Shown here: one piece after another, positions 2,793 to 31,180 of the stretch
Position numbering within the stretch: position 1 is the first letter of the stretch
Layout: each line of letters starts with the position of its first letter
NCBI RefSeq assembly: GCF_018398935.1
Contig: NZ_CP074694.1
Location: 1,770,001-1,802,000, forward strand
DNA length: 32,000 nt
Source of the DNA: Telmatocola sphagniphila
Lineage (GTDB): Bacteria > Planctomycetota > Planctomycetia > Gemmatales > Gemmataceae
Direction of reading: 5' to 3'
Position numbers and translations under genes: made by a program
The notes under the pieces: model-generated
The model's database searches: none
Told to the model about the DNA's origin: nothing
Seen by the model: only the letters and a program-made list of their open reading frames with translations

Positions 2793-2833
2793 TCGATCAG
2801 ACTACGGTGCAAATTCATAATTAAGGAATCCGC

Positions 2834-3769
2834 ATGATATCCGTCCGAGGGCTTCGCGTTGATTTCGATAATTTTTGTGCGGTTAAAAATCTCTCGTTCG
2901 AGGTGGGCAAAGGTCATGTCTTCGGCTTGATCGGTCCCAACGGAGCTGGCAAAACGACTACGATGCGATCCATCATCGGATTGCTCGAACCGACCTACGG
3001 CGACATCGAAGTGGCGGGTGTTAACATCCGCGAGAAGCCTGAAGAGGCCAATCGCAAAGTCGCTTTCATGCCCGACTTCCCTCCGATTTACGAAGATCTG
3101 AGAGTCTGGGAATTTCTCGATCTGTTCGCTGCCAGCTACTACGTGCCCAAAAGCGAACGGCCGGAAATCATCGATCGTTATCTGCATCTGGTCGATCTGT
3201 ACGAGAAACGTGATGCTTTTATCCCAGGTCTCTCCCGAGGGATGCGTCAGCGCTTGATGCTTGCCAAGACTCTGATCCCCGATCCGGAAGTCATCATCCT
3301 TGACGAGCCGGCCAGCGGTGTCGATCCGCACGGTCGGATTCTCCTCAAAAACATTTTTAAGCAACTCTCGCAGGCCGGTAAAACGCTACTGGTGTCTTCG
3401 CACATACTCTCGGAAATGAGCGAGTTCTGTACTGCCATCGGCATTATGGAACGGGGCAAAATGGTGGAGAGCGGTACCGTCCAGGACGTTAGTCGGCGGG
3501 TCATGGGGCACGCTCTAGTCAGTCTGGAATTGCTGCATCCCGAACAGGAAGAATTGTTACGCAGCGTGCTGAGCCGAGATTCCAAGGTGGGTAAACTGGA
3601 ATCGCTCGGTCAAGGTCGCTGGGAGATCGGCTATGAAGGCGAGGAGCAGGAAACTGCGGACCTGCTGAAAAAGCTGGTAACTTCAGATCTGCAGATCATT
3701 TCCTTCGGCCGCAAGAAGGAAGCTCTGGAAGATATTTTTCTCAAGATCGGTGCCAAAGAAGTTTCCTAA
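2834..3769 (+). CDS. ABC transporter ATP-binding protein
   Basis: Walker A GPNGAGKTT, signature-like LSRGMRQR, Walker B VIILDEPASGVDP and H-loop VSSHILSE, plus an ~80-aa C-terminal extra domain. AAGGAA lies upstream of the ATG. Confidence 0.9.
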   Translation: MISVRGLRVDFDNFCAVKNLSFEVGKGHVFGLIGPNGAGKTTTMRSIIGLLEPTYGDIEVAGVNIREKPEEANRKVAFMPDFPPIYEDLRVWEFLDLFAASYYVPKSERPEIIDRYLHLVDLYEKRDAFIPGLSRGMRQRLMLAKTLIPDPEVIILDEPASGVDPHGRILLKNIFKQLSQAGKTLLVSSHILSEMSEFCTAIGIMERGKMVESGTVQDVSRRVMGHALVSLELLHPEQEELLRSVLSRDSKVGKLESLGQGRWEIGYEGEEQETADLLKKLVTSDLQIISFGRKKEALEDIFLKIGAKEVS

Positions 3770-3811
3770 ACGCGAACCGAATACGAATCTTAAAATTTAT
3801 TGGATGCTGAT

Positions 3812-5557
3812 ATGGGTGAAATGCTGCGGCTAGCGGACAATCCGCTTTTTTTGAAGCACGTTCGATCTCGATTGAGACGCTCGGCGATGCTACCGACATT
3901 GATCCTCGTCGGGTTCCTCTGTTGCTGCCTTTTGTTCGTCGATCTTTGGTTCCGTTTTATGTCGGCTCCGCCCAACCCGAACCTCTACCCGTTCTGTTAT
4001 TTTATCCTGGTGGGGATGCAAGGCCTGATTCTCTACATACTGGGGGGCTCGCAGGTCTCCAGTTCAGTTGCCTACGTTAAAGACAGCGGGATTCTTGACT
4101 ATCATCGAATTACGCCGATTCCTGCGCGCGTGCAGGCCATCGGGTTTATCCTTGGTGCACCCATTCGGGAATACATTCTCTTCATCATCACTTTGCCGTT
4201 CTCTTTTGCACTAGCAATGCTGAGTGATGTGGGGATCTCGGGTTTCAGCAAGATATTCCTGGTGATGGTCGGGGCCACTGTTTTGAATCACACCATCGCC
4301 TTCCTGGTCGGACTTTCGGCGAAAACTTCACGAGCTGCAACCGGTCGCTATTTCGGTATTCTTGCCATGATCTGGTTTGGTACGAATGCCATCAGTGGGA
4401 TGGCGTTAATGAATGCCGAGCAATACCACGGGCCGACTCTCATATCCCCGTATCCGGTGGTACGGGAAGTGATTAATGAAGTGCTTTTCAAAAACGCTCC
4501 CGCAGCGAATGTGCCCCCGCCTAACAACTTCGTCAAGCCCCAGCCGGCTCAGAATAAAGGCGCGGCCGTCAAACAGAATCCATTCGGAGCTCCCGTCCAA
4601 CCCGGCTTCAATCCGAATGCCAATCCTCTGTTTTTCGCCAATAAAGCCGAACCGAAACTCTTTGGTATCGAAATCCCCTTAGTCCTTCAAACCTTGTTGG
4701 CTCAGGGCACGCTCTTGACTTTTCTCTTCATTGGAGCGACTCGAAGAATACACTCGGCCCGGATTTCCATCTTCTCCAAGCTGGAGGCCGTTGCCTTCTT
4801 CGGAGCCGTCAATCTCTTTGCCATTGCCACGCTGTGGAAAATCCCCGTGGAAGGACTGGTCATAGCCAATGTTTACGGCCTGATGATTCTTGCGATCGTA
4901 ATGATTGGTTTGTGTACGCAAACTCGGGGCGAATTGATGCGGGGTTATCAGAGAGCCCTCAAACAAGGCCGGAAGGTGCCGCGCACGTTCGACGATCTGG
5001 CTTCGAACCACGGCGCCATTCTGAGCATTGGTGCGATCCTCGGCGCATTCGCTATTTTTCATTACAACCTGATGGCCGGAGTGCAAGTCGCCGCTCAAGC
5101 ACCTCGCGTCGAATCCTACGTGTATGGGTTTGCCGTGGCCCTGGGGGCGATTGTTTCGGTTGGATTTCTCATTCAATACTGCAAATTGCGATATCCCAAA
5201 CGCTGGAGTCACCGGCTCGGCTTTTTCATGTTTTTCATCTGGTTTGCCCCAATGCTTCTCGCGCTAATCAGTTCGGTGATTGGTAATGGCAACTCGGCCA
5301 TTTCCCAAATGTTTCTGGCTCTCTCCCCTATCGTCAGTTTGCCGATGGTGATTCTGATCGATCGCGTGGGGGCGGCTGTCAATATGGGGACCGAGGAATT
5401 CCGGGCTATCGCAATAGGTGCGGTGTTCTTCGAATCGATTCTTTTCCTTTTGATTTCTGTTCGTGCGGAACGCCGGTTGCGGTCGGAGGCCCTCAGCGAA
5501 CATGAAGAAGATCACCGGCAATTGAATGATCCGGAATATGAAGTGGAATTAGATTAA
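3812..5557 (+). CDS. large polytopic membrane protein, probable permease partner of the preceding ABC ATPase
   Basis: The ORF is open from TTG 3800; the first ATG is at 3812. N-terminal NPLFLKHVRSRLRR resembles the cytoplasmic N-terminus of ABC-2-like permeases. Many hydrophobic segments are present. A Pro/Asn/Gln-rich low-complexity insert lies at about nt 4494-4655. Confidence 0.6.
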   Translation: MGEMLRLADNPLFLKHVRSRLRRSAMLPTLILVGFLCCCLLFVDLWFRFMSAPPNPNLYPFCYFILVGMQGLILYILGGSQVSSSVAYVKDSGILDYHRITPIPARVQAIGFILGAPIREYILFIITLPFSFALAMLSDVGISGFSKIFLVMVGATVLNHTIAFLVGLSAKTSRAATGRYFGILAMIWFGTNAISGMALMNAEQYHGPTLISPYPVVREVINEVLFKNAPAANVPPPNNFVKPQPAQNKGAAVKQNPFGAPVQPGFNPNANPLFFANKAEPKLFGIEIPLVLQTLLAQGTLLTFLFIGATRRIHSARISIFSKLEAVAFFGAVNLFAIATLWKIPVEGLVIANVYGLMILAIVMIGLCTQTRGELMRGYQRALKQGRKVPRTFDDLASNHGAILSIGAILGAFAIFHYNLMAGVQVAAQAPRVESYVYGFAVALGAIVSVGFLIQYCKLRYPKRWSHRLGFFMFFIWFAPMLLALISSVIGNGNSAISQMFLALSPIVSLPMVILIDRVGAAVNMGTEEFRAIAIGAVFFESILFLLISVRAERRLRSEALSEHEEDHRQLNDPEYEVELD

Positions 5558-7008: not shown

Positions 7009-7048
7009 GGAGAGGTGAAAAATCCTCTCCATTTTTCTTTTCTTTTTT
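7009..7048 (+). terminator. rho-independent terminator after the secretin-like gene
   Basis: Perfect 7-bp stem GGAGAGG (7009-7015) / CCTCTCC (7024-7030) with an 8-nt loop, followed by the T-rich tail ATTTTTCTTTTCTTTTTT (7031-7048). Confidence 0.75.
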
Positions 7049-7083
7049 CGCGGAAAATTCACTCGCGAATAGAGCATTGGCGG

Positions 7084-7113
7084 TTGACATGCTCGGCGTG
7101 GAACCGCTACAAT
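7084..7113 (+). promoter_or_regulatory. sigma70-like promoter candidate for the glycosyltransferase pair
   Basis: TTGACA (7084-7089), an 18-nt spacer, then TACAAT (7108-7113). It lies between the terminator and the GGAGG/GTG start at 7153. Planctomycete promoter consensus is poorly known, hence the moderate confidence. Confidence 0.45.
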
Positions 7114-7152
7114 CCCTCTCTTACTCGCCCCCAACGGCATGGAGGCTTCCGC

Positions 7153-8844
7153 GTGGTCAACCGCGTTGGATCAATATCGCGATTTGACACTTCTTCCGCC
7201 CCAAAATCGTCACTGCAACTCGTTTTCGATCTGCCGCCGGGTACCCGCTGGATTCGATTGAAGGTCAATATGACCAGTTCGGATTCAAACACGATTGAAT
7301 CAACCCTGAAAGGCTTTTCGGGTGCAATTCTGGCGACGCAGAATTGGGCGGGATTATGGATCGACGAAATCTTTGTACGAGTTCCGCCCGATGAACGGGG
7401 TTTAGTCCTGGAACCCACCCCATCTGTAAACGTGCACGTTGTGGAATGCCGCGTTCAACCGATCAGTTCGCATCAAATGTGGCTGATCGCCACCGGCAAG
7501 AAACTCAAATTGCTTCGCGATTACGGCTGCACCACGCGCGTTCTGCGACGCGGGCTTGGCCTGCTGCTGAAGGGTCAGTTCGGAGAGTTTCGCCAGAAGT
7601 TGCTGCGCGGCGTCGATGATTCGCGATTTATCTCGACCGATGAGAATCCGACCTTCGATACCAGTATCTCCGAAAACCTTCCGACTTGGGCAGTGAATCG
7701 GAAAATCGATTCGAGGGTTCTGGGCCGACGATTTGTCATTCTGACGCCTTCTTTGAGTGCGGGAGACGCCGTCAGTAATGATGTCTTAGGCATGGCTTAT
7801 ACCCTTCGGGCCGCGGGAGCTGAGGTTCTGGTTTGCAGCCGCTTTGCCAGCAAAATCTGGCCGGTCGTGGCCATCAATCGGCTGCCGGAAATGCTGCGAC
7901 CGCAGGATACTCTGATCTATCACCATTCGATCGGCTTCACGGAAGCGGTAAGGTTGTTTGAAAAATTGCCCTGCCGGAAGATTCTCAAGTACCACAACAT
8001 CACTCCCCCGGAATTGTTGCGAGAGCAGTCTCCCGAGCTCTCCAAAGCCTGCGAACAAGGTCTGGCAGAGTTGCCCCGATTGCGGGAAAGGGCTCACGCC
8101 GTCTTGGTGGACTCTCCGTTTAATGCGGCGAACTTTCCGGCCCAAGCCCAGTTCGAAATCCTTCCCCCCTTCAACCAAATCGACGAACTCCTTCAGGTAG
8201 AACCTCAGGAAATTGAAGGCGTGCTGCCGGGAATTCTCGTCGTGGGCCGGGTGGTACCTAATAAGAACATCGAAAAAGCCATCGAAACGCTGGCTTTTCT
8301 GCGGAAGGATTCACGACCGGAACTCAAGCTTTATATCGTCGGCTCCATTCAGAGCTGGGATTACGTTCACAAGCTGAAATCTCTGGCCGAGAAATTGGAT
8401 ATCCAGGATGATGTGCAATTTCTCGGGAACGTGACGCCGCAGCAGTTGAAGGGGCTTTACAAAACGGCTCTGGTATTACTTTGCACCAGTCTGCATGAAG
8501 GCTTCGGGCTTCCGTTGCTGGAGGCGGCCGCGCTGAAGCTGCCGATTGTCGCGGTTCCCAATGGAGCCATTCCGGCCACCGTGGATGGCTGCGGCTGGAT
8601 GGCGGCCGATATCCCTGAGACGCTGGGACGAACGATTCTGCGAACGATGGAAAATTCCGGTGAGCGCGAGATTAAATTGATGCTGGGTGAAAGACATTAT
8701 CGGAAACACTATACCAACTCAAGTATTGCCGATCGATTTCTGGATCTTCTGCATACGAGCCTCAGAGTCGAAGCCGATCCACTCCTTCAGTTATCCCGTG
8801 CGGAACTGTCCGTGGAGGCCGACTCGCAAATAACGGTAACTTGA
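7153..8844 (+). CDS. glycosyltransferase family 1 (GT4-like) protein with unknown N-terminal domain
   Basis: C-terminal GT1 motif LLCTSLHEGFGLPLLEAAALKLPIVAVP. The tracked ORF begins at 7015 but reads through the terminator and promoter. GTG 7153 is preceded by GGAGG (7141-7145) at 7-nt spacing; ATG 7270 is an alternative start. Confidence 0.8.
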   Translation: MVNRVGSISRFDTSSAPKSSLQLVFDLPPGTRWIRLKVNMTSSDSNTIESTLKGFSGAILATQNWAGLWIDEIFVRVPPDERGLVLEPTPSVNVHVVECRVQPISSHQMWLIATGKKLKLLRDYGCTTRVLRRGLGLLLKGQFGEFRQKLLRGVDDSRFISTDENPTFDTSISENLPTWAVNRKIDSRVLGRRFVILTPSLSAGDAVSNDVLGMAYTLRAAGAEVLVCSRFASKIWPVVAINRLPEMLRPQDTLIYHHSIGFTEAVRLFEKLPCRKILKYHNITPPELLREQSPELSKACEQGLAELPRLRERAHAVLVDSPFNAANFPAQAQFEILPPFNQIDELLQVEPQEIEGVLPGILVVGRVVPNKNIEKAIETLAFLRKDSRPELKLYIVGSIQSWDYVHKLKSLAEKLDIQDDVQFLGNVTPQQLKGLYKTALVLLCTSLHEGFGLPLLEAAALKLPIVAVPNGAIPATVDGCGWMAADIPETLGRTILRTMENSGEREIKLMLGERHYRKHYTNSSIADRFLDLLHTSLRVEADPLLQLSRAELSVEADSQITVT

Positions 8845-8849
8845 GTTAG

Positions 8850-11399
8850 ATGTCCATTCGGCAAATTATCAAAAAAGGGGTCGTACAACCGGCCAAATGG
8901 CTGGCTCGACCAATCGTTCGCCCACTTCGGGATCTATTCTTACTCCCGGCCATCCAGCAATTCAAAGACCTGGGCCAGCAACTCCAAGCGCAGCTTCAGG
9001 AATTGAGCGATTCGGTCAAAATGACCGATCGCACGCTTCTGGGAATGGGATTTCTCAGCAATCTGGCCAGCCGGGATACCAATCGCCTGCCCTCGTTCCC
9101 AAAAGTGCTCTACGCGGATTTGCGCTGCCTGCAAGATCCTTTTTATTCCAAGCGCGGCATCGGTTTTCACGCTTCCGGGGTGCTTCGACACGTTCGGCAG
9201 TTTCTGTCGCCCTCGCTTCGCGTCATCGGTCTGACCGATCTTCAGCTTCCCGATTTGCCCGAAGAATATTGCACTCTTGTGGATGAAGTGCGAGCCTATC
9301 GATTGGCCGAGCCGCTGTCGGGGATTTTGATTCATCTTTCCCCAATGACGCACGACCCGGCTTGGCTCGCACCGCTTTTTGCAAGGAATGACCTGCTGCA
9401 TGTGGCCCTGGTCTACGATTTCATTCCGCTAGATGAAACCTCGCGGTACCTCGCCTCCGCGAATGCCCATCGTTCCTACCTGAACTGCTTGATCTGGCTG
9501 AAAGCCTGCGATATTTTCTGTCCCATTTCCGAGCTCGCTGGTAGAAGATTGCAGGAATTGCTGGGGATACCGAGCGAGCGTATCGCAGTGACCGGGGCCT
9601 GCATTCGATCTGATTTCCTGAATGCAACGAAGGTCGATCCCGGAAATCTGCCCTTCGAGAAGGAAAACTATTTCCTGGTCGTAGGCGGTGGCGATAGCCG
9701 CAAGAATGTGGAAATCGTTCTTCAGGCACATGCGGAAGTGCCCGGGAAAACGGGTTTGGTGATCGCTGGCCATTATGAGGATGAACATTCAGAACGTCTA
9801 CGGGAACAGTATCGCTCCTTCGGTGGAACCGTTAAACGATTGAAGTTCGCTCGCGGCCTCAGCGATGCCGAATTGGCCATCCTGTATCGAAACGCTCTGG
9901 CGACGATAGTTCCCTCGAAGAATGAGGGCTTTTCGCTTCCGGTGGTCGAAGCTCTCTGTTGCGATTGCCCGGTGATTCTATCCGATATTCCCGTTCATCG
10001 AGAATTGGTGAAATGGGATGCCAGTTTTTTTGGTCCCAGCGATCTGCCCACTTTGAAAGATAAACTGGTTAAATTCCAAGAGTCCTCGGATATCAGGAAT
10101 AGCTGGCTTTCCGGGCAGAAAACGATGCCTCTCGATTTTTCGGAGCCTCAAGTCTCTCAAAAAGTCTGGTCGCAGGTACTGCGTTTTTTACCGGAACACT
10201 CCTCCGTGGAAGTAGGAATTCCGCAGCTTCGCACCGCGAAGCCCAAAATTGCCTTTTTAACACCCTTGCCGCCGGAGCGATCCGGTGTGGCGGATTATTC
10301 GGCTGATTGTCTGCGCAGCCTCGTTAAGTACGCCGAGGTCGATGTTTACACCAACCGCGCCAATTGCGTACGCGACCCCGGTGTTCATCGATACGAATTA
10401 ATTTGCGATCTGCCTTACATCAACGGTAAATACGACCGTGTGGTGAGCGTAATTGCCAACTCCACCGAGTATAACCGCAAGTGCATCGACTTATTGAAAC
10501 GCTACGGCGGCCCTTGCATCAGCCACGATGCCCGCATGATCGACTACTACATGGCTCTTCATGGCCGATTTGGTTTCGCGGAACTGGCTTCCCAATGGCT
10601 GAAACGCCCGGTCTCCTTCGAGGAAGGCTGGGAGTGGTACATCGAACAATCGAAAATGCAGACGCTCTGCTTCGAGCAGATACTGCCCAAAGCCGCCCCG
10701 ATGATCGTTCATTCTCGAGGAATTCAAAAAGCCATTGAGAAACAATATGGCGTAACACCTGCAGTCGTTCCTTTCTCCCCGTACCGTCACTTCCAGGAGA
10801 AGGATCTATCGCCACATACGAAGGCGGAAGCCCGGAACCGGCTCGGCTTGGATCCGAAGCGGCTGATCATCGTCTCTCTGGGAATCGTTGCCAAAGAGAA
10901 AGCGCCGATTCCCTGTCTGGATGCTCTGCAAATTCTCCGCGAACAAGGCCTCGATGCGGAATTGTACTTTGTCGGTACCAATGGTGGCATAGCGGAGTTT
11001 TGGTCGGAATGGATTGCGGAGCGGGGACTTCGCGGTCACGCTCATTTCCTGAACCGCTGGATCGATGAGGCGACTTATCGCGATTACTGCCTGGCCGGGG
11101 ATTTGGCTTTGCAGCTCCGCACGCATCGCTTTGGAGGTATTTCCGGGGCGCTGGCCGATTGCATCAGCGCCGGTCTGCCGACCGTAGCCAACCTGGATCT
11201 CGCCGATGCTTTAGATTCCCCAGATTATGTGTTTCGGGTCAGCGATGAACTAGTGCCTGCCGATATCGCTGCTCGACTGACACAAGCCCAAAGTTCACTC
11301 GCTCAAGTTTCGGATCGGCTCGAAATCCGACGGAAATACCTGGAAGAGCGGAATTTTGACAGTTATTCCAAGAATCTTCTGCAGGTTCTTGGGCTCTAA
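8850..11399 (+). CDS. two-domain glycosyltransferase (tandem GT1/GT4-like modules)
   Basis: 849 aa. The first module carries VPSKNEGFSLPVVEALCCDCPVILSDIP. The second module starts near KIAFLTPLPPERSGVADYS and ends with FGGISGALADCISAGLPTVAN. The N-terminus is coiled-coil-like (QQLQAQLQELS). The start is 5 nt after the upstream stop. Confidence 0.8.
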   Translation: MSIRQIIKKGVVQPAKWLARPIVRPLRDLFLLPAIQQFKDLGQQLQAQLQELSDSVKMTDRTLLGMGFLSNLASRDTNRLPSFPKVLYADLRCLQDPFYSKRGIGFHASGVLRHVRQFLSPSLRVIGLTDLQLPDLPEEYCTLVDEVRAYRLAEPLSGILIHLSPMTHDPAWLAPLFARNDLLHVALVYDFIPLDETSRYLASANAHRSYLNCLIWLKACDIFCPISELAGRRLQELLGIPSERIAVTGACIRSDFLNATKVDPGNLPFEKENYFLVVGGGDSRKNVEIVLQAHAEVPGKTGLVIAGHYEDEHSERLREQYRSFGGTVKRLKFARGLSDAELAILYRNALATIVPSKNEGFSLPVVEALCCDCPVILSDIPVHRELVKWDASFFGPSDLPTLKDKLVKFQESSDIRNSWLSGQKTMPLDFSEPQVSQKVWSQVLRFLPEHSSVEVGIPQLRTAKPKIAFLTPLPPERSGVADYSADCLRSLVKYAEVDVYTNRANCVRDPGVHRYELICDLPYINGKYDRVVSVIANSTEYNRKCIDLLKRYGGPCISHDARMIDYYMALHGRFGFAELASQWLKRPVSFEEGWEWYIEQSKMQTLCFEQILPKAAPMIVHSRGIQKAIEKQYGVTPAVVPFSPYRHFQEKDLSPHTKAEARNRLGLDPKRLIIVSLGIVAKEKAPIPCLDALQILREQGLDAELYFVGTNGGIAEFWSEWIAERGLRGHAHFLNRWIDEATYRDYCLAGDLALQLRTHRFGGISGALADCISAGLPTVANLDLADALDSPDYVFRVSDELVPADIAARLTQAQSSLAQVSDRLEIRRKYLEERNFDSYSKNLLQVLGL

Positions 11400-14915: not shown

Positions 14916-15013
14916 GGAATACTCCGTTTACAGGGACTACCAAAGTAGATGTATTGCAAGCGGGAAAATCGTGCATAGCTTTAACTAGAGATTCGCATCC
15001 TGGAGAATTCACC

Positions 15014-16120
15014 ATGAGTATCGATGCCGTTCCCATTCGCCGAATCGACCATGTCCGCTTTTTTGTTGGCAACGCCCGGCAATCCGCGTTTTTCTACCGC
15101 AACGCCTTCGGATTCGATGTGGTCGCCTACGCCGGATTGGAAACCAAGGTTCGGCATGAGGCAGGCTATATTCTGAAATCGGGAGATATCACCTTTGCCC
15201 TGATTTCCCCGTTAAAATCTTCGCACCCCGAATATCCCCGGCTAGTGACGCACGGCGACGGCGTGATGGATATCGCGCTGGAAGTGGATGACGTCAAAAA
15301 AGCTTATAACGAAACGGTTTATCGAGGGGCTGTCGGTGTGGTGGGACCCACCGTGCTGGAAGATGAGCAAGGGCAATATGAGTTTGCCTCGATTCGAACG
15401 TATGGAGATACAACCCACAGCTTTGTGAATCGCGACAAATACAAGGGAGTTTTCTCCCCAGGGTTCAAGCCGCTCGACCCCGGACGTTACAACCCGAACA
15501 CCGCCAAGCCGGCCGGCCTGAAAAATATCGATCACATCGTAGGGAACGTCGAACTCGGCAAAATGAATGATTGGGTGGAATACTACAAGAAAATCATGGG
15601 ATTTGATCAGTTGGTTTCCTTTGACGATAAACAGATCTCCACCGAATACACGGCACTTATGTCGAAAGTGGTTCAGGGAGGCGATGGCCGGGTGAAGTTC
15701 CCTTTGAACGAACCCGCCCAGGGGCGGCGTAAATCGCAAATCGATGAATACCTGGACTTCTACGGCGGACCCGGTGTACAGCATATCGCCCTGGCCACGG
15801 ATGACATTATCAAGACGGTGAAAGCTCTTCGGGCGAATGATGTGAGTTTTCTGCGAGTTCCGAAGACCTATTACGAAATGTTGCCCAGCCGGGTGGGTCC
15901 GATCAAAGAAAATATCGACGAATTGGCCGATTTGGGAATTCTCGTTGACCGCGATGACGAAGGCTACATGCTGCAAATCTTCACCAAGCCGGTCTGCGAC
16001 CGACCGACCGTGTTTTTTGAGATTATCCAGCGGGCGGGATCGAAGAGCTTCGGTAAAGGGAATTTTAAAGCCTTGTTCGAAGCCATCGAACGGGAGCAGG
16101 CAAAGAGAGGAACGCTGTAA
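15014..16120 (+). CDS. hppD: 4-hydroxyphenylpyruvate dioxygenase
   Basis: IDHVRFFVGNARQSAFFY, two VOC-fold modules, and the C-terminal hallmark FGKGNFKALFEAIEREQAKRGTL. ATG 15014 lies 7 nt after GGAGA; the tracked ORF starts at 14954. The stop TAA overlaps the next ATG by 1 nt. Confidence 0.9.
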   Translation: MSIDAVPIRRIDHVRFFVGNARQSAFFYRNAFGFDVVAYAGLETKVRHEAGYILKSGDITFALISPLKSSHPEYPRLVTHGDGVMDIALEVDDVKKAYNETVYRGAVGVVGPTVLEDEQGQYEFASIRTYGDTTHSFVNRDKYKGVFSPGFKPLDPGRYNPNTAKPAGLKNIDHIVGNVELGKMNDWVEYYKKIMGFDQLVSFDDKQISTEYTALMSKVVQGGDGRVKFPLNEPAQGRRKSQIDEYLDFYGGPGVQHIALATDDIIKTVKALRANDVSFLRVPKTYYEMLPSRVGPIKENIDELADLGILVDRDDEGYMLQIFTKPVCDRPTVFFEIIQRAGSKSFGKGNFKALFEAIEREQAKRGTL

Positions 16121-17109
16121 TGATTCGACTAGAATCGCTTCACATCAGCCGCTTTCGAGGCATCCGAGAAGGGAAGATCGAAGGCTTCACTGACGTGAAC
16201 ATCCTCGTTGGAAAAAACAATTCCGGCAAGACGACCGTGATGGAAGCGATCATGCGATGCATCGATTCTTGGACTTCCATGCCAGATATTATGGGAAGGG
16301 ATGTGCCCAATACTTGGAGTGAGATAAGAAAAAGCGGAACTCCAAGTATAATTTCGGACTTCTGGTATCAGCAAGATCTGTCTACTAACGCCAACTTGAG
16401 TATCACTTTAAAAAATGCGGATACCAATTCTCAGATTCAGTTAATTCGTTTTTCGGTCACTTACTCCAAGGATACACACGGAAATCTAAATGCTTTACCT
16501 CAAGGCGATTCAGTTCATGTAACTGGTAATTGGGTTACATTTCGCAAAGGACTAATTCTTATCCAGCCTGAGGATTGCCGAAACAGCAGAATCGAAGAGT
16601 TATTTTGGCAGAGCATCCTCTCCAATCGAAGAGACAAAATCTTACTTAAAAACTTGAACGAAGTTTTCGGCCTAAATGCAGAAGCTTTACAACTGATTCC
16701 GCCTAACAAATTAATGGTGCTCTACGACAACTATGGAATCCCTCTCGATGTGCTGGGGGATGGAACACGAAGTGCATTAAGAGCCTTAATTCTGCTCTCG
16801 ATGGTAAAATCCTGCTTGGTACTGATGGAAGAGCCTGAATGCTATCAGCATCCGGGCTCACTCGAAAAGTTTGCACTCGCCGTTACCAAATTGGCTCAGC
16901 AGCAACAAATCCAACTGATTTTATCGACGCATAGCATCGAATGCGTCAACGCCTTCCTCAAGGCTGCGAAAACCGTTGCTTCAAATGCCGCTGTTTTCCA
17001 TCTGAGCGTGAAGGATGGCCATCAGATCGCTCGCAAACTCGAAACGGAAACCGTGGAAACTCTTGAAAGCACTGGAATCGATGTGAGGTTCGCCGATCTT
17101 TATGCCTGA
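16120..17109 (+). CDS. compact SMC/RecF/OLD-type ABC ATPase (AAA_15/AAA_21-like), candidate defence-system sensor/ATPase subunit
   Basis: N-terminal MIRLESLHISRFRGI, Walker A GKNNSGKT (aa 31-38), signature-like LGDGTRSAL (212-220), Walker B LVLMEEPE (233-240) and H-loop LSTHS (268-272). It has no transmembrane partner. It is much more AT-rich than the flanks. An SD-like GAGAGG lies 9 nt upstream, inside the hppD 3' end. Confidence 0.8.
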   Translation: MIRLESLHISRFRGIREGKIEGFTDVNILVGKNNSGKTTVMEAIMRCIDSWTSMPDIMGRDVPNTWSEIRKSGTPSIISDFWYQQDLSTNANLSITLKNADTNSQIQLIRFSVTYSKDTHGNLNALPQGDSVHVTGNWVTFRKGLILIQPEDCRNSRIEELFWQSILSNRRDKILLKNLNEVFGLNAEALQLIPPNKLMVLYDNYGIPLDVLGDGTRSALRALILLSMVKSCLVLMEEPECYQHPGSLEKFALAVTKLAQQQQIQLILSTHSIECVNAFLKAAKTVASNAAVFHLSVKDGHQIARKLETETVETLESTGIDVRFADLYA

Positions 17110-17884
17110 AAATCGCTTAATTACAATTCTCTATGAAGGGGATGACGATAAAGCAGTGCTTCAGAAACTGCAAGCGTGCGGATTGATTCCTCCTTCGAAC
17201 GAAGTGAAAATAGCAGAGAGAGACAAAACCAAACACCCTGGCAAGGAAGGTCTTTATGGGCAATTGCTACCCATAATCCACCCATTTAAGGGGTTGGATG
17301 GTAGAGCAATCGTCCTGATGGATCTCGACGGGAACTCTCATCAAGGCTTGCAAAACGAATTTAGAGATGCCTTAAAAGCAAGTCTCAGGAACGACACAGT
17401 TCCGATAAAGATCACTGATGGAAATCGAGTTGGCAGGCTTGAGGAAATCGTTCTTGAGTACGAGGAAAGGCGGGGAAGCGTTGTTTTGGTTCCAGTAGGC
17501 AACCCAGAGGACAAAGAAGTCTCCTCTAAATATGGAATTGATCGCTTCGCTATCGATGATTGGATTCTAAAACTTGCCTTGCACCAGCAGGCTTTTGAAG
17601 CCGTTTCAGAATTTGAAAAGCTCGGCTATGATCGTGCCCTGAAGAAGTTCGAGGAAGTCTCAGATCTTCTTCGAAACAATAGCTTAGAAGTTCGGAAGGC
17701 AAAAACCTATGTTCAAATTCTTAGGTTGATCGCCGATATTCGCCCCTCGACCGCAACCGTTATCGGGCGTATAGTCGAGAAGGCCTTCGCAAGTTTAGGT
17801 CGCGAGGAGTTCACGAGGCTTCTGAAACCTTTTCTATCGGACCTGAACGATGCCAGCTCGATTCTGAGGAGGACTGAATCGTGA
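17102..17884 (+). CDS. TOPRIM-like protein (DUF4435/DUF3226/RloB-type partner), candidate nuclease effector
   Basis: There is an 8-nt overlap (ATGCCTGA) with the ATPase gene. ILYEGDDD (Glu12) and VLMDLDGN (Asp74, Asp76) give the E...DxD arrangement of a TOPRIM fold. The C-terminal ~110 aa are helical with no motif I recognise. The family call is from motifs only. Confidence 0.55.
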   Translation: MPENRLITILYEGDDDKAVLQKLQACGLIPPSNEVKIAERDKTKHPGKEGLYGQLLPIIHPFKGLDGRAIVLMDLDGNSHQGLQNEFRDALKASLRNDTVPIKITDGNRVGRLEEIVLEYEERRGSVVLVPVGNPEDKEVSSKYGIDRFAIDDWILKLALHQQAFEAVSEFEKLGYDRALKKFEEVSDLLRNNSLEVRKAKTYVQILRLIADIRPSTATVIGRIVEKAFASLGREEFTRLLKPFLSDLNDASSILRRTES

Positions 17885-18597
17885 TCCCCCTTCCCCCCGT
17901 GCGGTCCTTGCGGGATTTTTACGCCTTCGAACAACATGTCAAAACCTGCCGGGCCCAGCGCGGGCTGGAGATGGTGAAGGAATGGTACGAAATACCCGTT
18001 TTTTACTTCTCGAATCCCGCGGCGATCATCGGTGACGGCGATACTGTCTATGCCCCCTGTGGTTCGCAAGCACTCGACTATGAGCTAGAGATCGCCTGCG
18101 TCATCGGTCAAAAAGGTCGAAACCTGGTCGCCGACGATTCCGCCCTAAGTTACATTCTCGGCTTTACAATAATGAATGACTGGTCCGCCCGCGACATTCA
18201 ACGAAAAGAAATGGCCGTGGGACTCGGGCCGAGCAAGGGTAAGGATTTTGCCACTTCCCTGGGCCCGGGTGTCGTACCCATGTCCGAATTGATGGATGTT
18301 TATAAGGACGGCCGATTACATCTGGAAATGACGGCCCGCGTTAATGGCAAAGAGTACTCTCGCGGCAACGCCGGAAGCATCCATTATACCTGGCCACAGC
18401 TTCTGGCACATGCGAGCCGGGATGCCGATCTGTTACCGGGCGATGTGATCGGCTCCGGAACTGTGGGTACTGGCTGCATCCTGGAATTAACCCCCGAGAA
18501 GGTTGGGGGATGGCTGAAAGCGGGCGATCGGGTGGAACTGATCGTAGAAAGATTAGGAACACTTCGGAATGAAGTGATCGCCAGACCGCCCTTGTAA
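17881..18597 (+). CDS. fumarylacetoacetate hydrolase (FAH) family protein, catalytic domain only
   Basis: SLRDFYAFEQHV, WYEIPVFYFSNP, LDYELEIACVIG, GFTIMNDWSARDIQ and GDVIGSGTVGTG match the FAH catalytic domain. The GTG start overlaps the upstream stop (GTGA) and lies 8 nt after GAGGAGG (17866-17872). Confidence 0.8.
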   Translation: MIPLPPVRSLRDFYAFEQHVKTCRAQRGLEMVKEWYEIPVFYFSNPAAIIGDGDTVYAPCGSQALDYELEIACVIGQKGRNLVADDSALSYILGFTIMNDWSARDIQRKEMAVGLGPSKGKDFATSLGPGVVPMSELMDVYKDGRLHLEMTARVNGKEYSRGNAGSIHYTWPQLLAHASRDADLLPGDVIGSGTVGTGCILELTPEKVGGWLKAGDRVELIVERLGTLRNEVIARPPL

Positions 18598-18606
18598 ATC
18601 GGGAGA

Positions 18607-19782
18607 ATGTCGATGCCTTACTACCGCCAATTTGGGTCGATCCCCCCCAAACACCATATCGAACATCCCCAGATACCCGGCTATCGTAACGAAGGAATCT
18701 TCTACGAAGAGGTCATCACCACCGAGGGTTTTAACCGGGCCTACAGTATTCTCTATCACCTGCGGCCCCCGACCCGGGTAAAACATCAGGAGCACCTCAA
18801 GAGCATTGCGATCGAATTGGTGAGTGATCCGATGCTCCGGCACATTCACTTGAAAACCAAGGAGATTGCACGCGCGGGTGATGTGATTTTTGGCCGAACC
18901 CCGATGTTCCATAATTCGGATGTGACGATCTCCCGTTGTCGGCCCGCGAAACAACAGGAACAGCTTTACAAAAATGCCTCGGCCGATGAGGTGCTATTCA
19001 TTCACAGTGGTTCGGGGGTTCTGCACTCGCTCTATGGAAAGCAAGCTTTTCATCCTTTCGACTATGTTGTGATCCCGCGCGGAACGATTTACAAAATCGT
19101 TTTCGACGACATTCAGAAGGCCGACCTGCTGATCGTCGACTCCCCGCCGCCGATTCGCCTCCCGCACCGCTACAAGAATGCCGATGGGCAGATTCGGCTG
19201 GGGGCTCCTTATAGTGAACGGGATTTTCACGGCCCCTCTCAACTCGATATCGTCGATCAGGAAGCCGATACGGAATTGATCCTGAAAAAAGGTGAGAACT
19301 ATTTCCGATACGTTCTGGCCAGCCATCCCTTCGACGTGGTGGGGTGGGATGGCCTGATCTACCCTTATACCTTTAATGCGGACGATTTCGAACCGATCAC
19401 CGGTACGATTCATCAGCCGCCGCCCATCCACCAGACCTTTGAAACGAGTGGCTTCGTCATCTGCACTTTTGCACCGCGTGTTCTGGATACTCATCCCAAA
19501 GCCGTAAAAGTCCCTTATGCCCATTCGAACGTCGATTCGGATGAAGTTCTCTATTACGTTCGGGGCAAATTCGGTTCTCGGCGTGGGGTGGAGGAATCTT
19601 CTTTTACCTTGCATCCGTTGGGAATTCCACACGGCCCGCATCCCGGCACCATCGTGGCCAGCCGAGCGCACACTCGGACGGATGAACTGGCCGTAATGAT
19701 TGACACATTTCGACCGCTGCATCTCACCCAAGTTGCGATAGAATACGACGATCCGAAATATCCTTTGAGTTGGCTGGAATAG
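18607..19782 (+). CDS. hmgA: homogentisate 1,2-dioxygenase (short bacterial cupin type)
   Basis: MPYYRQFGSIPPKHH..., PYAHSNVDSDEVLYYV and HPLGIPHGPHPG (His ligands), with a length of ~390 aa. ATG 18613 (MPYY) is an equally good start given GGGAGA at 18601-18606. Confidence 0.8.
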   Translation: MSMPYYRQFGSIPPKHHIEHPQIPGYRNEGIFYEEVITTEGFNRAYSILYHLRPPTRVKHQEHLKSIAIELVSDPMLRHIHLKTKEIARAGDVIFGRTPMFHNSDVTISRCRPAKQQEQLYKNASADEVLFIHSGSGVLHSLYGKQAFHPFDYVVIPRGTIYKIVFDDIQKADLLIVDSPPPIRLPHRYKNADGQIRLGAPYSERDFHGPSQLDIVDQEADTELILKKGENYFRYVLASHPFDVVGWDGLIYPYTFNADDFEPITGTIHQPPPIHQTFETSGFVICTFAPRVLDTHPKAVKVPYAHSNVDSDEVLYYVRGKFGSRRGVEESSFTLHPLGIPHGPHPGTIVASRAHTRTDELAVMIDTFRPLHLTQVAIEYDDPKYPLSWLE

Positions 19783-19794
19783 GTGGAAAGCGGC

Positions 19795-20400
19795 ATGAGG
19801 ATCGATCCCAAGACGACCAACCCCGTAGATGTGTATCAGGCTCTCGTCGGTCTAGTCACTCCCCGACCTATTGCCTGGGTAAGTACCGTCGACGCCCAGG
19901 GGCGTCCCAATCTGGCCCCGTTCAGCTTCTTCAACGTGTTCAGCGCCAATCCGCCGGTCGTGGTTTTCTCGCCGACCTTGCGACGCGACGGCACCAAAAA
20001 GGGAACGCTTTTAAATATCGAAGCAACCAGCGAATTCGTTATTCACATTCCCACGAACGATCTGGTCGAGCCGATGAATCTGACGGCCAAGGAATTGCCC
20101 GAGGGGGAAAGCGAATTCGATCTCGCGAAACTGACTCCGATTCCGTCGGAAAAGGTGAAGCCGCCGCGCATCCAGGAATCGCCGACAGCACTGGAATGCA
20201 AACTTCAGCAGATCATTCCCCTGGGGCATGGCCCCATTGCCGGAAATCTGGTGATTGGGGAAATTCTGCTCATCCATTTCGAAGATCGACTCCTGGGTGC
20301 AGACGGCAAAATCGACCCCCATAAAATGCAGTCGATTGGCCGCCTGGGCGGCGATTACTATGCCCGAACGACCGATCTATTTGCATTGAAGAGACCGTAA
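19795..20400 (+). CDS. flavin reductase-like (FMN-binding split-barrel) protein
   Basis: VYQALVGLVTPRPIAWVSTVDAQGRPNLAPFSFFNVFSANPPVVVFS is the classic flavin-reductase-domain N-terminus. The ORF is open from GTG 19783, immediately after the hmgA stop. Confidence 0.85.
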   Translation: MRIDPKTTNPVDVYQALVGLVTPRPIAWVSTVDAQGRPNLAPFSFFNVFSANPPVVVFSPTLRRDGTKKGTLLNIEATSEFVIHIPTNDLVEPMNLTAKELPEGESEFDLAKLTPIPSEKVKPPRIQESPTALECKLQQIIPLGHGPIAGNLVIGEILLIHFEDRLLGADGKIDPHKMQSIGRLGGDYYARTTDLFALKRP

Positions 20401-20404
20401 ATCC

Positions 20405-20887
20405 ATGATTCATCCACTGCAGCCTTCCCACAAATCGCATCTGGTGCCGCTGGTCGATAAGACCGGCGTTTTCAAACCGAACGAAGTCGAGACGCTGGAT
20501 AGCCTCCTGGAGGGCTACTTCGACGCCTATCACAAGGAGGATCAGCACCGCTCGTTCGTGCTCGAGGAAGAGGGCCACATTCGGGGCTTCGTTTATTTTG
20601 CCCCGGAAGATTCCACGATGACCGACCGCACCTGGACGCTCTATTGGATCGCGGTGGACGTTACCAAACAGCGTGGCGGCTACGGCAAGAAGCTGATGAA
20701 TTTCGTGGAGGATTACATTCGGAAGGAGAACGGCCGCCTCCTGCTGATCGAAACCTCCTCCACTCCCAAGTACGAACCGACTCGAAACTTCTACTTGAAA
20801 TATGGCTACGTCCAGGTGGCCTTGGTACCCGACTTCTATTCGGACGGGGATGGCAAGGTTATCTTCGCCAAACATCTGCAGCGCTAG
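20405..20887 (+). CDS. GNAT family N-acetyltransferase
   Basis: Acetyl-CoA binding motif VDVTKQRGGYGKKLMNFV and the C-terminal NFYLKYGY; 160 aa; starts 4 nt after the upstream stop. Confidence 0.85.
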   Translation: MIHPLQPSHKSHLVPLVDKTGVFKPNEVETLDSLLEGYFDAYHKEDQHRSFVLEEEGHIRGFVYFAPEDSTMTDRTWTLYWIAVDVTKQRGGYGKKLMNFVEDYIRKENGRLLLIETSSTPKYEPTRNFYLKYGYVQVALVPDFYSDGDGKVIFAKHLQR

Positions 20888-21245
20888 GAATTCGCCCAGG
20901 CTCGCCCAACGCCTCATTTTGCATAACCGGAAAAGCCGTCAATTTCGGAAAATCCTTCCTAATAAACAATGCTTAATCGATAATCGTTCCCATCGTTTCA
21001 TGCCCTACAATGCTCACGGTTCGACTGTTTGTCAGAAATCGATCATTCGCGACAGACGGCCCTCCAATTACACCGGCTGGATCATTTTCAACGAAACTCC
21101 GTTAAGGATCAATGCTGTCAAGGGCGACACTAAATTTGCGTGGTTGATTGAAGCGGTTCGCGCAGAGGTTGCGTGAATGAAAATTTCCATTGCTTCCATA
21201 ATTCGCGTTGCATCGCTGAAACCTGTGAGTCCGCCAGATTGACTG

Positions 21246-28662: not shown

Positions 28663-28748
28663 GCCATTAGGCGGTGATGCTATGATTAGGATGTAATGCT
28701 TTGCAGAGTCCGCACGTACCCGTGCGGGCGCACGTCGGAGGTTTACCC

Positions 28749-31124
28749 GTGCCGCACCGTTATTTAGTTTGGGCAATTGCCGGTCTCCTGACTTACAGTG
28801 TAGCGTACGCCCAATCAGAACCGGAATATTACTCAAAACCGGAAAAAGTTGCAGAATACTGGCGTGCTGTCAAATTCGAAGTGAGCATCGGCAAATATGA
28901 AATGGCCGCCTCGCTCATCAAAGGCCTGCTGGAAAAAAATCCCACCGACGAAGAACTTCTAGCGATCGAAGCCAAAGATGGCATGGCCCCCCTGCTACGG
29001 CTCCGCAATATCCCGGTCTGGACCAAGCTCAGCTTCCCGGCAATTGAAGACAAATTCCGGCGGAAACAGGCCGAAGAAAAAGCGACGGCGTTGAATGAGG
29101 AATACAAGAAAAACGCGGAGACCCTGATTCAGAAGGTTTCTGCGGCGGTCAAGGCCAAGCTCGGCGATACCAAGCAGATCGCTAAATTCGCCGCCAATCT
29201 GCGTGCGACTCCCGAAGAGGCGGCCTTCGCCGAAAAAGAGCTCTATCGAAGTGGCTCGGCGGCCATCCCCGTTCTCATTTCGCTAATGAAAACCGATGAG
29301 GATCTGCGCCTCCCCATCCGGCAGACCTTGTCGCGACTCGATCTTTCCACGGTCCCGGTAGTACTGGCTTGTCTCGAAATTCCCGATCCCAGCCTGCAGC
29401 TGGAACTGCTGGAAGCGCTTCGCAATCGCGGCGATTACTTCAGCTTGCCCGCTCAGGTTGAAACCGATCCCCTGCCGATTCTGAATTTTCTTTCTTCCAA
29501 ATTGGCTTCCATTCCCGAGCCGGTGCGCAGCAAAGCCGGCTCCATGCTGGAAGGGCTGAGCGTCAAGGATCCTAAGGACGCCCTGGTTCCCGAGTTGAAC
29601 ACACCTCAAGGACAGTTGTGGAAGGCCGCGAATAAACTTTATGAGCACAAAGGTCGATTCCGCGACACCAATCAGGTAACCCTTTGGACGGCGGAAGCCG
29701 CGGATAAGATTACCTCTCGAACCGGTAGCGTTTCGGATGGCGAGGAATTCTTCGGACTGAAATATCTTCGCTGGAGTTTGAAGATCCAGCCCGATTTTCT
29801 CCGCTCGCAGCAGTTGTTTCTGAAGCTGGCTATAGAGAAGCACTTTCAACGAACGGGCTTGGATAAACCCCTTAACCTCACCTCCCCGGAACTGCACGAG
29901 TTGCTGGTCGGAGCTCCCTATGATCTTCTGAGCGATCTGCTCGTGAGTTCCATCCAGGAGCAGAAATCGGGTGTGGCACTCGGCGTTATTCAGGCTCTGA
30001 GCGATCGGATCGATCCGCGAGCCGTGGCCACTTCGAAACGAGCGAACGAAAAAATCGAACGCCCTGCTCTTTTGGAAGAAGCTCTGAATCATCCGGATTT
30101 CCGAGTGCAATTAGCCGCTGCGGTGGCCATTCTGAAAATCAGCACCAAAAAGCCACTCGCGCCGGACGCGGTTGTCAAAATCCTCTCCCAGGCCGTTCGA
30201 AATGGCGTGGAATCGGCTCAAAAAGGGAAACCGACGGCTTTGATTGGGGATTTTGATCAACTGCGGGGCCAATCACTCGCCAATCTGGTTCGCAAGGCCG
30301 GCTTTGACGTCGAATGGATTCGGACGGGCAAAGATCTGCTTCGTCGGATCGTCAGCGATTCAAACGTCGATCTCGTGATTCTGGATACCTCGATTCCCGG
30401 ACCGCCGGTCAGCGATGTGATTGCTCAGATGCGGTCCGACAATCGCATGAAATCGATACCCGTGCTTTTCAGCCAGGGTTTCGAAAATAAGACGACGAAG
30501 AAGGAAAGCCTGATCAAGCTCGCCGGTTATTACCGAAATGTCGTGCTGGTCAACGAAATGCTGACCGACGACGCGGTTAAAGAGGGCCTGAGCAAGGTGC
30601 TGATTTCGGCCGATACCCAAGTCCTTTCCCTGGAAGAGAAGAAGCGAAATGCCGCGGTGGCCATCGAATGGCTGAAGCGAATTGCCTTGGGCGAGCGAGT
30701 GGGCTATCCCATCGCTCCTGCGGCAAACGCCATCCGGGAAGCCCTGAGCGATTCCGAACTGGTGAATCAGGCCATCGAAGCTAGTTCCAACATTCCCAAC
30801 AAGGAATTGCAGCAAGATTTGGCGAATCTGTTCCTGAATGCCGGCCAACCGGTGGAATTACGGGTGAAAGCCGCGGATGCGGTTATCAAGCAGTTCCAGC
30901 AGTTCGGCGCCGGTTTGGCGCCGAACCAGCTCAAGATCATGAACGATCTTCTGAAGACCGAAACCAATCCGGTCATCAAAGGGAAGCTCACTGCTCTATT
31001 GGGCGTTATTCAAGCCAACAGCAAGCTGACGGGGGAAGCGCTCCAGGGTTACAGCCCGAAGTTCTCGTCAACCCCGCCGACAGCGCCTTCGAGCGACGCC
31101 CCAGCGCCCAAGGAAAAGAACTAA
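28749..31124 (+). CDS. exported HEAT-repeat protein with embedded receiver-like (REC) domain
   Basis: GTG 28749 lies 7 nt after GGAGG (28737-41) and gives the signal peptide MPHRYLVWAIAGLLTYSVAYAQS. HEAT-like repeats include ALNHPDFRVQLAAAVAILKI and PVELRVKAADAVIKQF. The REC-like block at nt ~30228-30605 contains ALIGDFD and DLVILDTSIPGPP...IPVLFS. The tracked ORF starts at TTG 28701. Confidence 0.6.
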   Translation: MPHRYLVWAIAGLLTYSVAYAQSEPEYYSKPEKVAEYWRAVKFEVSIGKYEMAASLIKGLLEKNPTDEELLAIEAKDGMAPLLRLRNIPVWTKLSFPAIEDKFRRKQAEEKATALNEEYKKNAETLIQKVSAAVKAKLGDTKQIAKFAANLRATPEEAAFAEKELYRSGSAAIPVLISLMKTDEDLRLPIRQTLSRLDLSTVPVVLACLEIPDPSLQLELLEALRNRGDYFSLPAQVETDPLPILNFLSSKLASIPEPVRSKAGSMLEGLSVKDPKDALVPELNTPQGQLWKAANKLYEHKGRFRDTNQVTLWTAEAADKITSRTGSVSDGEEFFGLKYLRWSLKIQPDFLRSQQLFLKLAIEKHFQRTGLDKPLNLTSPELHELLVGAPYDLLSDLLVSSIQEQKSGVALGVIQALSDRIDPRAVATSKRANEKIERPALLEEALNHPDFRVQLAAAVAILKISTKKPLAPDAVVKILSQAVRNGVESAQKGKPTALIGDFDQLRGQSLANLVRKAGFDVEWIRTGKDLLRRIVSDSNVDLVILDTSIPGPPVSDVIAQMRSDNRMKSIPVLFSQGFENKTTKKESLIKLAGYYRNVVLVNEMLTDDAVKEGLSKVLISADTQVLSLEEKKRNAAVAIEWLKRIALGERVGYPIAPAANAIREALSDSELVNQAIEASSNIPNKELQQDLANLFLNAGQPVELRVKAADAVIKQFQQFGAGLAPNQLKIMNDLLKTETNPVIKGKLTALLGVIQANSKLTGEALQGYSPKFSSTPPTAPSSDAPAPKEKN

Positions 31125-31147: not shown

Positions 31148-31180
31148 GCGAGAGAGCATTTTCCCTCGCTTTTATGTTTC
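31148..31180 (+). terminator. weak rho-independent terminator candidate
   Basis: GCGAG (31148-52) / CTCGC (31165-69) form a stem extendable by one G-C pair, followed by TTTTATGTTT. The stem is short. Confidence 0.35.

Follow-up and report, generated by a model that had tools for sequence, protein, structure and literature searches.

Two overlapping genes of the planctomycete Telmatocola sphagniphila (Gemmatales), here called gene A and gene B, form a cassette that is probably a 'split OLD', a conflict module of two genes gained by horizontal transfer, in which A would act as an ATP-driven sensor or regulator and B as a metal-dependent nuclease effector. The genes lie in a 32-kb stretch of DNA (contig NZ_CP074694.1, positions 1,770,001 to 1,802,000; hereafter the window, in whose numbering all positions are given) for which an initial annotation, made from the letters alone, had proposed a candidate defence system. 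As a candidate anti-phage system the cassette is of a kind already described, and what sets it apart is chiefly where it sits: its most distinctive feature, which the initial annotation had not noticed, is that it is seamlessly inside a tyrosine-degradation operon.

Gene A (16120..17109, + strand) begins with ATG and encodes 329 amino acids, and gene B (17102..17884, +) also begins with ATG and encodes 260. They share 8 nucleotides (17102..17109, +; ATGCCTGA) that contain the start of B and the stop of A, implying that the two genes are translationally coupled. Both open reading frames (ORFs), their overlap and all the motifs that the initial annotation quoted for the two proteins were found as it had described them. 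Homologues of A number at least 65 (37-50 % identity), and a search of 5.8 billion clustered proteins gave 16 close homologues of B (42-52 % identity), those with an organism name being Pirellulales. B follows A in all related loci looked at except L097, where B has been lost, and the gene calls of L001, L004, L005, L009, L010, L012, L013, L014 and L098 show the identical 8-nucleotide overlap. The homologue counts, the kept gene order and the shared overlap together indicate that A and B are real genes rather than chance ORFs.

The GenBank version of B (KIH39_07225) has 242 amino acids and a GTG start at V19, a choice that affects window positions 17102-17155 and drops a conserved N-terminal strand together with the catalytic-type glutamate E12. 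Homologues align from residue 1 and keep E12, which favours the ATG at 17102 over the GenBank start. Together the two proteins amount to 589 amino acids, a compact split version of an OLD nuclease, and the initial annotation's picture of such a nuclease divided between two genes is a fair description. The sole fused relative, P0148 (547 amino acids), is a natural fusion of A-like and B-like parts, the first 291 residues aligning end to end with A (28 % identity, E 7e-44) and residues 311-542 matching the B profile.

Gene A, whose residues 1-15 are MIRLESLHISRFRGI, carries motifs that are strongly conserved among 68 homologues. In its Walker A motif GKNNSGKT (16210..16233, +; residues 31-38), G31, N33, N34, G36 and the lysine K37 are invariant. 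The signature-like LGDGTRSAL of ATP-binding cassette (ABC) proteins (16753..16779, +; residues 212-220) has invariant G213 and G215 and a nearly invariant D214. E237, E238 and E240 of the Walker B/D-loop segment LVLMEEPE (16816..16839, +; residues 233-240) are each at least 90 % conserved, as is H271 of the H-loop STHS (16924..16935, +; residues 269-272), in which T270 and S272 are invariant.

Searches with A matched AAA_15 (9.6e-22) and AAA_21 (2e-16) in Pfam. The best PADLOC matches were PDC-M38A (2.7e-29, 101 bits; four PDC-M38A models match) and AbiLi (2.9e-29), followed more weakly by AriA (7.8e-22), Old (3.8e-17), NsnB, GajA (about 1e-13), HEC-01A (5e-13) and HEC-02A. All NCBIfam matches were below threshold, namely the Eco8 effector, PtuA, RecF and MAD3 (7.9e-8, 31.9 bits against a cut-off of 420). 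The nearest solved structure by sequence is the Thermus OLD nuclease 6p74 (9e-7); solved AriA aligned over residues 7-49 only (E 4e-4). An AlphaFold2 model built from the 68 homologues has a pLDDT, the predicted score of the local distance difference test, of 93.1, and its Foldseek matches are the heads of SMC, Rad50, PtuA, retron Eco7/Eco8 and OLD proteins (E about 1e-12, template modelling (TM) score about 0.6). Pfam, PADLOC, PDB and Foldseek thus agree with the initial annotation in making A an ABC head of the SMC/Rad50/OLD type, with a short insert and without a membrane partner. The alternative it had named, a nucleotide-binding domain of a transporter, was looked at and is not the case: ABC_tran reached E 0.055 and fell short of the cut-off, SMC, Rad50 and OLD heads lead the structural matches, and the neighbouring genes encode soluble enzymes.

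For gene B, we counted conserved positions in 113 aligned sequences reaching down to 20 % identity. In ILYEGDDD (17126..17149, +; residues 9-16), E12 is kept in 107 of 107 ungapped sequences and D16 is an aspartate in 99 of the 113 and a glutamate in 4. G47 is kept in 107 of 111 and lies in the HPGKEG loop (17234..17251, +) after strand 2, which the model places at residues 35-37. The end of strand 3 (residues 68-74 of the model) carries VLMDLDGN (17312..17335, +; residues 71-78), a DxD motif in which D74 is present in all 113 sequences and D76 is aspartate in 104 and asparagine in 9. The first helix of the helical domain holds D152 and D153 in IDRFAIDDW (17537..17563, +), with 107 aspartates and 6 glutamates at the first position and 111 and 2 at the second. 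Deeper in the helical domain, K201 in EVRKAKTYVQILR (17687..17725, +) is kept in 105 of 113.

This series follows the order found in BpOLD, a class 2 OLD nuclease of Burkholderia with active-site residues E400, E404, D455, D457, T506/E508 and K562 (PMC6755086): a glutamate, an acidic residue four positions on, a glycine after strand 2, a DxD motif, acidic residues in the first helix of a helical domain that follows, and a lysine deeper within it. The spacing of E12 and D16 equals that of E400 and E404 in BpOLD (PMC6755086). D152/D153 are candidates for a second-metal site by likeness to T506/E508, and K201 is a candidate catalytic lysine by likeness to K562; this residue-by-residue correspondence is a putative one, drawn from order and conservation rather than from superposition. 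The AlphaFold2 model of B (pLDDT 90.9) has strands at residues 7-10, 35-37, 68-74 and 123-132 with helices between them, the succession expected of a TOPRIM core, and the helical domain follows.

The link between B and known TOPRIM families is indirect, although each of its steps is significant. We built one profile from the 16 close B sequences (A1) and an alignment of 113 full-length family members (A2), each of which was scanned singly. A1 found 162 cluster representatives at E<=1e-3 among 1.84 billion proteins, nearly all of 220-270 amino acids. Among the 113 relatives, 30 match the Pfam family DUF3226 (best 4.2e-8), 11 match OLD-like_TOPRIM (best 3.9e-5) and one matches Toprim; in PADLOC, 11 match mad4, 9 match PDC-M38B models (best 8.8e-7) and 6 match HEC-01B (3.1e-5). 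DUF3226 was barely matched in a first sample of ten relatives and was matched in a second sample picked by similarity to a fragment of PH0156.

The clearest bridge is the protein P0152, which matches A1 over its full length (E 2e-6) and whose residues 5-83 score 33.7 bits against DUF3226, above the gathering score of 27. Aligned with hhalign, A1 and P0152 agree over 192 columns (97.6 % probability, E 3.6e-12), and E12/D16, G47, D74xD76, D152/D153 and K201 of the window protein all pair with identical P0152 residues. The best PDB profile match of the family is 2p62, the DUF3226 protein PH0156, with the EG..D, GK and DxD elements aligned at a non-significant E of 0.2. These results suggest that the N-terminal half of B has a TOPRIM-type E...G...DxD core of the DUF3226 kind; with the helical domain as its C-terminal half, B would have the layout of an OLD nuclease's C-terminal region. 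The initial annotation's assignment to that kind stands by way of the P0152 chain and the DUF3226 and OLD-like_TOPRIM matches of the relatives. In the literature library searched, no paper on DUF3226 turned up.

The cassette is bordered on its left by hppD, the gene for 4-hydroxyphenylpyruvate dioxygenase (HPPD; 14954..16120, +), and on its right by an FAA-hydrolase family gene (FAH; 17881..18597, +), after which come a homogentisate dioxygenase-like gene (HGD; 18607..19782, +) and a flavin reductase gene. The ATG of A overlaps the hppD stop (TAATG). At the 3' end of the cassette (17866..17884, +), a Shine-Dalgarno-like run, GAGGAGG, stands 8 nucleotides before the GTG of FAH, and this GTG overlaps the stop of B (GTGA). 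The guanine-plus-cytosine (GC) fraction of the cassette is 0.456, against 0.537 in both flanks.

For comparison we mapped the window proteins on 80 metagenome loci with an HPPD 58-79 % identical to that of the window. The recurring order in these loci is ADH (on the opposite strand), HPPD, FAH, HGD and flavin reductase, and both A and B are absent from all 80. In 12 loci the junction is empty, FAH following HPPD after about 7-70 nucleotides (for example in L027, ...ACGCTGTGATGGCGATCCCCCTTCCCCC). Given the empty junctions and the absence of A and B from related hppD loci, the cassette is a precise insertion of about 1.76 kb, and its low GC content together with the twelve empty junctions suggests that it was acquired horizontally.

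Neither terminal repeats nor a target-site duplication exceeded chance at the ends of the cassette, and no internal promoter or terminator signal did so. GATTC...GAATC inverted repeats were seen by eye at both ends; a repeat finder did not report them and they were not counted because the left one falls in the conserved MIRLES codons. A truncation of FAH by the insertion was also considered and rejected, its FAA_hydrolase domain being complete (profile positions 4-213 of 214) and its relatives aligning from residues 1-7.

The junction itself appears to be a recurrent insertion site, since other genes occupy it elsewhere. A gene of about 190 codons lies between hppD and FAH in L015 (6110-6710), L016 (3307-3905), L020 (6101-6774) and L051 (1977-2559), and downstream of HPPD in L032, L034 and L036, where FAH is absent; it is related to the Uma2/TT1808 'putative restriction endonuclease' (PDB 9y1l and 1wdj, about 5e-10). 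L028 and L057 have another insert of about 1 kb at the same junction. The sole mobility gene seen in the window is an ORF for a DDE_5 superfamily transposase (31179-31949, - strand; E 5e-33), 13 kb from the cassette. Elsewhere in the window, at 7015-11399, stand two adjacent glycosyltransferase genes (609 and 849 amino acids) with Glycos_transf_1 matches and weaker ones to the 'GT4-conflict' family (7.5e-9 and 3.9e-6).

The neighbours of A-B relatives differ in nearly every genome, and in nearly all related loci the GC content of the cassette is below that of its flanks. A link to defence comes from three Pirellulales loci (L001-L003), in which the pair lies between a gene for an anti-phage-type DUF1156 methylase and one for a DUF499 ATPase, with a DrmD-like SNF2 helicase gene and a DUF3800 gene upstream; the arrangement is that of an Hma-type operon carrying embedded genes in the sense of Payne et al. 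(2024; bioRxiv 10.1101/2024.01.29.577857). Two other settings are defence-like: in a Gemmataceae metagenome-assembled genome (L009), the pair is directly followed by a gene for a different AAA_21/AAA_15 ATPase (391 amino acids) and a 239-amino-acid ORF (2709-4605), and L011 has a DUF4365 gene nearby. Other copies sit in metabolic operons, as in the window. In L098 (7300-10190) the pair is placed between queC and queD with 4-nucleotide overlaps on both sides, and in L010 (7231-11589) between atuA and an enoyl-CoA hydratase (ECH) gene with an ATGA overlap downstream. An aldolase gene begins 11 nucleotides after the pair in L013, and housekeeping genes surround it in L004, L012, L014, L096 and L099.

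Some further features of these loci are given as observations. In both L098 and L010 a Shine-Dalgarno-like GGAG stands ahead of the ATG of the downstream gene, and in L009 a Ser/Thr kinase fragment lies upstream of the pair. Directly downstream of the pair in L005 (6695-9244) are genes for a methyltransferase, a PF09414 RNA ligase and an HD/AAA_33 kinase, and L011 has genes for Hen1, AAA_33, Thg1 and RlaP about 4.5 kb from the pair (16178-21002). Such RNA-repair-type neighbours may be a hint of an RNA target for B, or may be there by chance.

Among described systems, the window pair is a split OLD-like module that is closest to the PDC-M38 and HEC-01 candidates and to mad3-mad4 of MADS. PDC-M38 is a PADLOC candidate system. 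PDC-M38 and HEC-01 consist of two genes, one for an ABC ATPase and one for a TOPRIM protein, as the window cassette probably does; A matches the ATPase models of both and relatives of B match their TOPRIM models, whereas B of the window matches none of their B models at E<=1. B of the window has diverged too far for the PDC-M38 and HEC-01 models to reach it. Because no B model is matched, the PADLOC rules would not call the system. HEC-01 is an Hma-embedded pair of ABC ATPase and TOPRIM (Payne et al. 2024, bioRxiv 10.1101/2024.01.29.577857), and the Pirellulales orthologues of our pair are embedded likewise, whereas the window pair occupies a metabolic operon with no Hma gene within 32 kb. The initial annotation had suggested that the pair might be of an undescribed kind, but ATPase-TOPRIM pairs are already catalogued as PDC-M38, HEC-01 and mad3/mad4.

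The MADS likeness consists of an AAA_15/21-type ATPase followed by a small partner, with the MAD3 match of A and the mad4 matches of 11 B relatives. The equivalog score of MAD3 is far from reached, and MADS tells self by methylation, whereas nothing of that kind is present in the window. Of the mandatory mad6, mad7 and mad8 there was no sign: Pfam, run on 20 long ORFs of the window other than A and B, showed no DUF499, DUF1156 or helicase domain, and two of these ORFs (3800-5557 and 28701-31124) matched nothing. Both mad3 and mad4 are required for MADS defence in Pseudomonas (Maestri et al., bioRxiv 10.1101/2023.03.30.534895).

OLD nucleases (P2 Old, BpOLD and TsOLD) share with the pair an ABC ATPase, a helical domain and, probably, a TOPRIM domain, the same order of conserved residues and, in A, the Walker A, signature, Walker B and H-loop motifs. 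They differ in being fused, whereas the window pair is two polypeptides; A has 329 residues against about 390 ATPase residues within an OLD protein of 528-586, and B shows no direct hidden Markov model (HMM) or Foldseek match to the OLD TOPRIM. DUF3226 is the nearest curated family for the N-terminal half of B, although B of the window does not itself match it.

We do not assign the pair to the two systems to which the initial annotation had likened it. PARIS also has adjacent genes for an ABC ATPase and a separate TOPRIM effector, AriB, which is a tRNase. The AriA model of PADLOC matches A, more weakly than do PDC-M38A and AbiLi; AriA has 464 amino acids against the 329 of A and aligns in its solved form with a short N-terminal segment. 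The pair is not PARIS, since B has no detectable AriB/DUF4435 relationship: a single one of the 113 relatives matches DUF4435 (E 0.027), and the AriB models of PADLOC were matched neither by B of the window nor by any of the 113. AbiL is likewise a two-gene system whose AbiLi matches A well, but the pair is not AbiL because no AbiLii model was matched by B of the window or, at E<=0.01, by any of the 113. Gabija combines a fused ATPase-TOPRIM protein, GajA, with the helicase GajB, whereas the window genes are split and have no helicase neighbour; the GajA models match A through its ATPase motifs only.

In the mechanism that we infer, A would be a small ABC ATPase that dimerises on ATP, as expected of its class, is translationally coupled to B and is probably bound to it. 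B would be a nuclease with a two-metal site formed by E12/D16, D74xD76 and D152/D153, assisted by lysine K201 of the helical domain. If OLD, Gabija, PARIS and mad3-mad4 of MADS are a guide, A may sense a trigger, such as a foreign protein or a nucleic-acid structure, and its ATP binding or hydrolysis would then license B to cut DNA or tRNA/RNA, which would stop the invader or the infected cell. There is no intergenic DNA on either side of the cassette and therefore no room for a promoter outside coding sequence; the cassette would be read through from the hppD operon, and its 3' end would supply the ribosome-binding site and start codon for FAH. In HEC-04, a fused relative, the ATPase and nuclease sites are both needed (bioRxiv 10.1101/2024.01.29.577857).

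Several observations weigh against a split OLD-type conflict module. No model of Pfam, PADLOC, NCBIfam or PHROGs matches B directly at E<=1, and a sequence search of the PDB was likewise negative. Foldseek of its model against PDB and BFVD gave no TOPRIM protein, the best matches (E 0.02, TM <0.3) being to gephyrin E-domains, which we treated as noise. The similarity of B to TOPRIM proteins, which the initial annotation had put forward as a check, is thus present in the HMM matches of relatives and absent from direct HMM and Foldseek comparisons. An hhalign comparison of the B family with the single P2 Old sequence yielded no TOPRIM alignment; an attempt at a profile of the OLD C-terminus gave 4 homologous fragments only, and tblastn of PLSDB returned nothing for it. 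Tblastn searches with B in the PLSDB plasmids and the INPHARED phages were negative. Among tested relatives HEC-01 is the nearest, and in E. coli it did not protect against the phages tried (bioRxiv 10.1101/2024.01.29.577857). In the fused P0148 the Walker A motif is degenerate (GSHNAGRS) with its lysine replaced, so this protein is possibly degenerate; its DxD position has a single aspartate, and it may be an inactivated or regulatory derivative. Finally, most close relatives sit amid housekeeping genes and not in defence islands, and the enrichment in such islands for which the initial annotation had asked is weak.

The Hma-type contexts raise the possibility that the cassette has broken away from a methylation-dependent system of the Hma/MADS type. 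It would then be a mad3-mad4-like restriction part that works only with methylase, DUF499 ATPase and helicase partners and that, alone in Telmatocola, is inert or decaying. The closest Pirellulales pair lies between DUF1156 and DUF499 genes and by a DrmD-like helicase gene, and a segment of about 55 nucleotides upstream of the ATG of A in the stand-alone copies of L005 (4734-4793), L009 (671-730) and L011 (9941-10000) resembles the 3' end of the L001 DUF1156 gene (3682-3741). This segment looks like a fragment of the methylase gene that was carried along, and its likeness to the DUF1156 3' end suggests that these copies descend from an Hma-embedded one. A also matches MAD3 weakly and relatives of B match mad4, while in MADS itself a deletion of mad5 requires that mad2 or mad3 be deleted with it (bioRxiv 10.1101/2023.03.30.534895). 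However, the window ORFs are both undamaged and lack none of the conserved catalytic residues, and many stand-alone pairs in different genomes retain both genes and their overlap, which implies selection without the Hma genes. As the window also has no methylase, DUF499 or helicase gene that we could find and the MAD3 score is so far below its cut-off, we consider such a remnant unlikely.

Improbable, too, in our estimation, is a selfish, toxin-antitoxin-like addiction cassette, with B as the toxin and A as its restraint, that persists by embedding itself in useful operons and brings no anti-phage benefit. Its low GC content, patchy distribution and seamless insertion in metabolic operons (hppD/FAH here, queC/queD in L098 and atuA/ECH in L010) are what such an element might show; the PDB entry of AriA calls it an 'antitoxin', and HEC-01 lacks a defence phenotype (bioRxiv 10.1101/2024.01.29.577857). 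Nevertheless, PARIS, Gabija, OLD and HEC-04 use the same architecture for defence, a role in addiction is compatible with one in abortive infection, and the cassette is marked by neither a mobility gene nor terminal repeats nor a target-site duplication.

A housekeeping pair for DNA repair or RNA processing (a RecF/Rad50-like ATPase with an RNase M5-like or OLD-like TOPRIM protein), or one tied to tyrosine catabolism, is very improbable: A does resemble RecF, Rad50 and SMC heads, the pair points the same way as the catabolic genes and is translationally coupled with them, and two relatives adjoin RNA-repair genes, but the family is rare (16 close B homologues among 5.8 billion proteins) and patchy with GC content below that of its hosts, and the twelve related hppD operons without the pair and the neighbours that vary in nearly every genome largely exclude such a function.

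The split OLD-type conflict module is thus the explanation that we prefer. A more tentative and rather doubtful extension of it is that the cassette embeds itself in operons, entering at their stop/start junctions, whether they are defensive (Hma) or metabolic (hppD-FAH, queC-queD and atuA-ECH), and that it then uses host transcription and restores the translational coupling to the downstream gene. If this were true, 'guilt by embedding' would extend beyond defence systems. Under the same tentative reading B could cut RNA and not DNA, at which the RNA-repair clusters beside two relatives hint.

For the family, these results indicate that a whole branch of ABC-ATPase/TOPRIM modules in planctomycetes escapes the models of current defence finders. 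Its B protein is invisible to Pfam, PADLOC, NCBIfam and PHROGs, and the GenBank start cuts off the catalytic-type glutamate. Embedding in operons with stop/start overlaps on both sides is also a warning not to depend on 'defence island' context when immune genes are sought in Planctomycetota and like phyla. The remaining interest of the pair lies in this operon-embedded lifestyle and in its well-conserved set of candidate catalytic residues, with which a compact split OLD offers a way to study how an ABC ATPase controls a TOPRIM nuclease.

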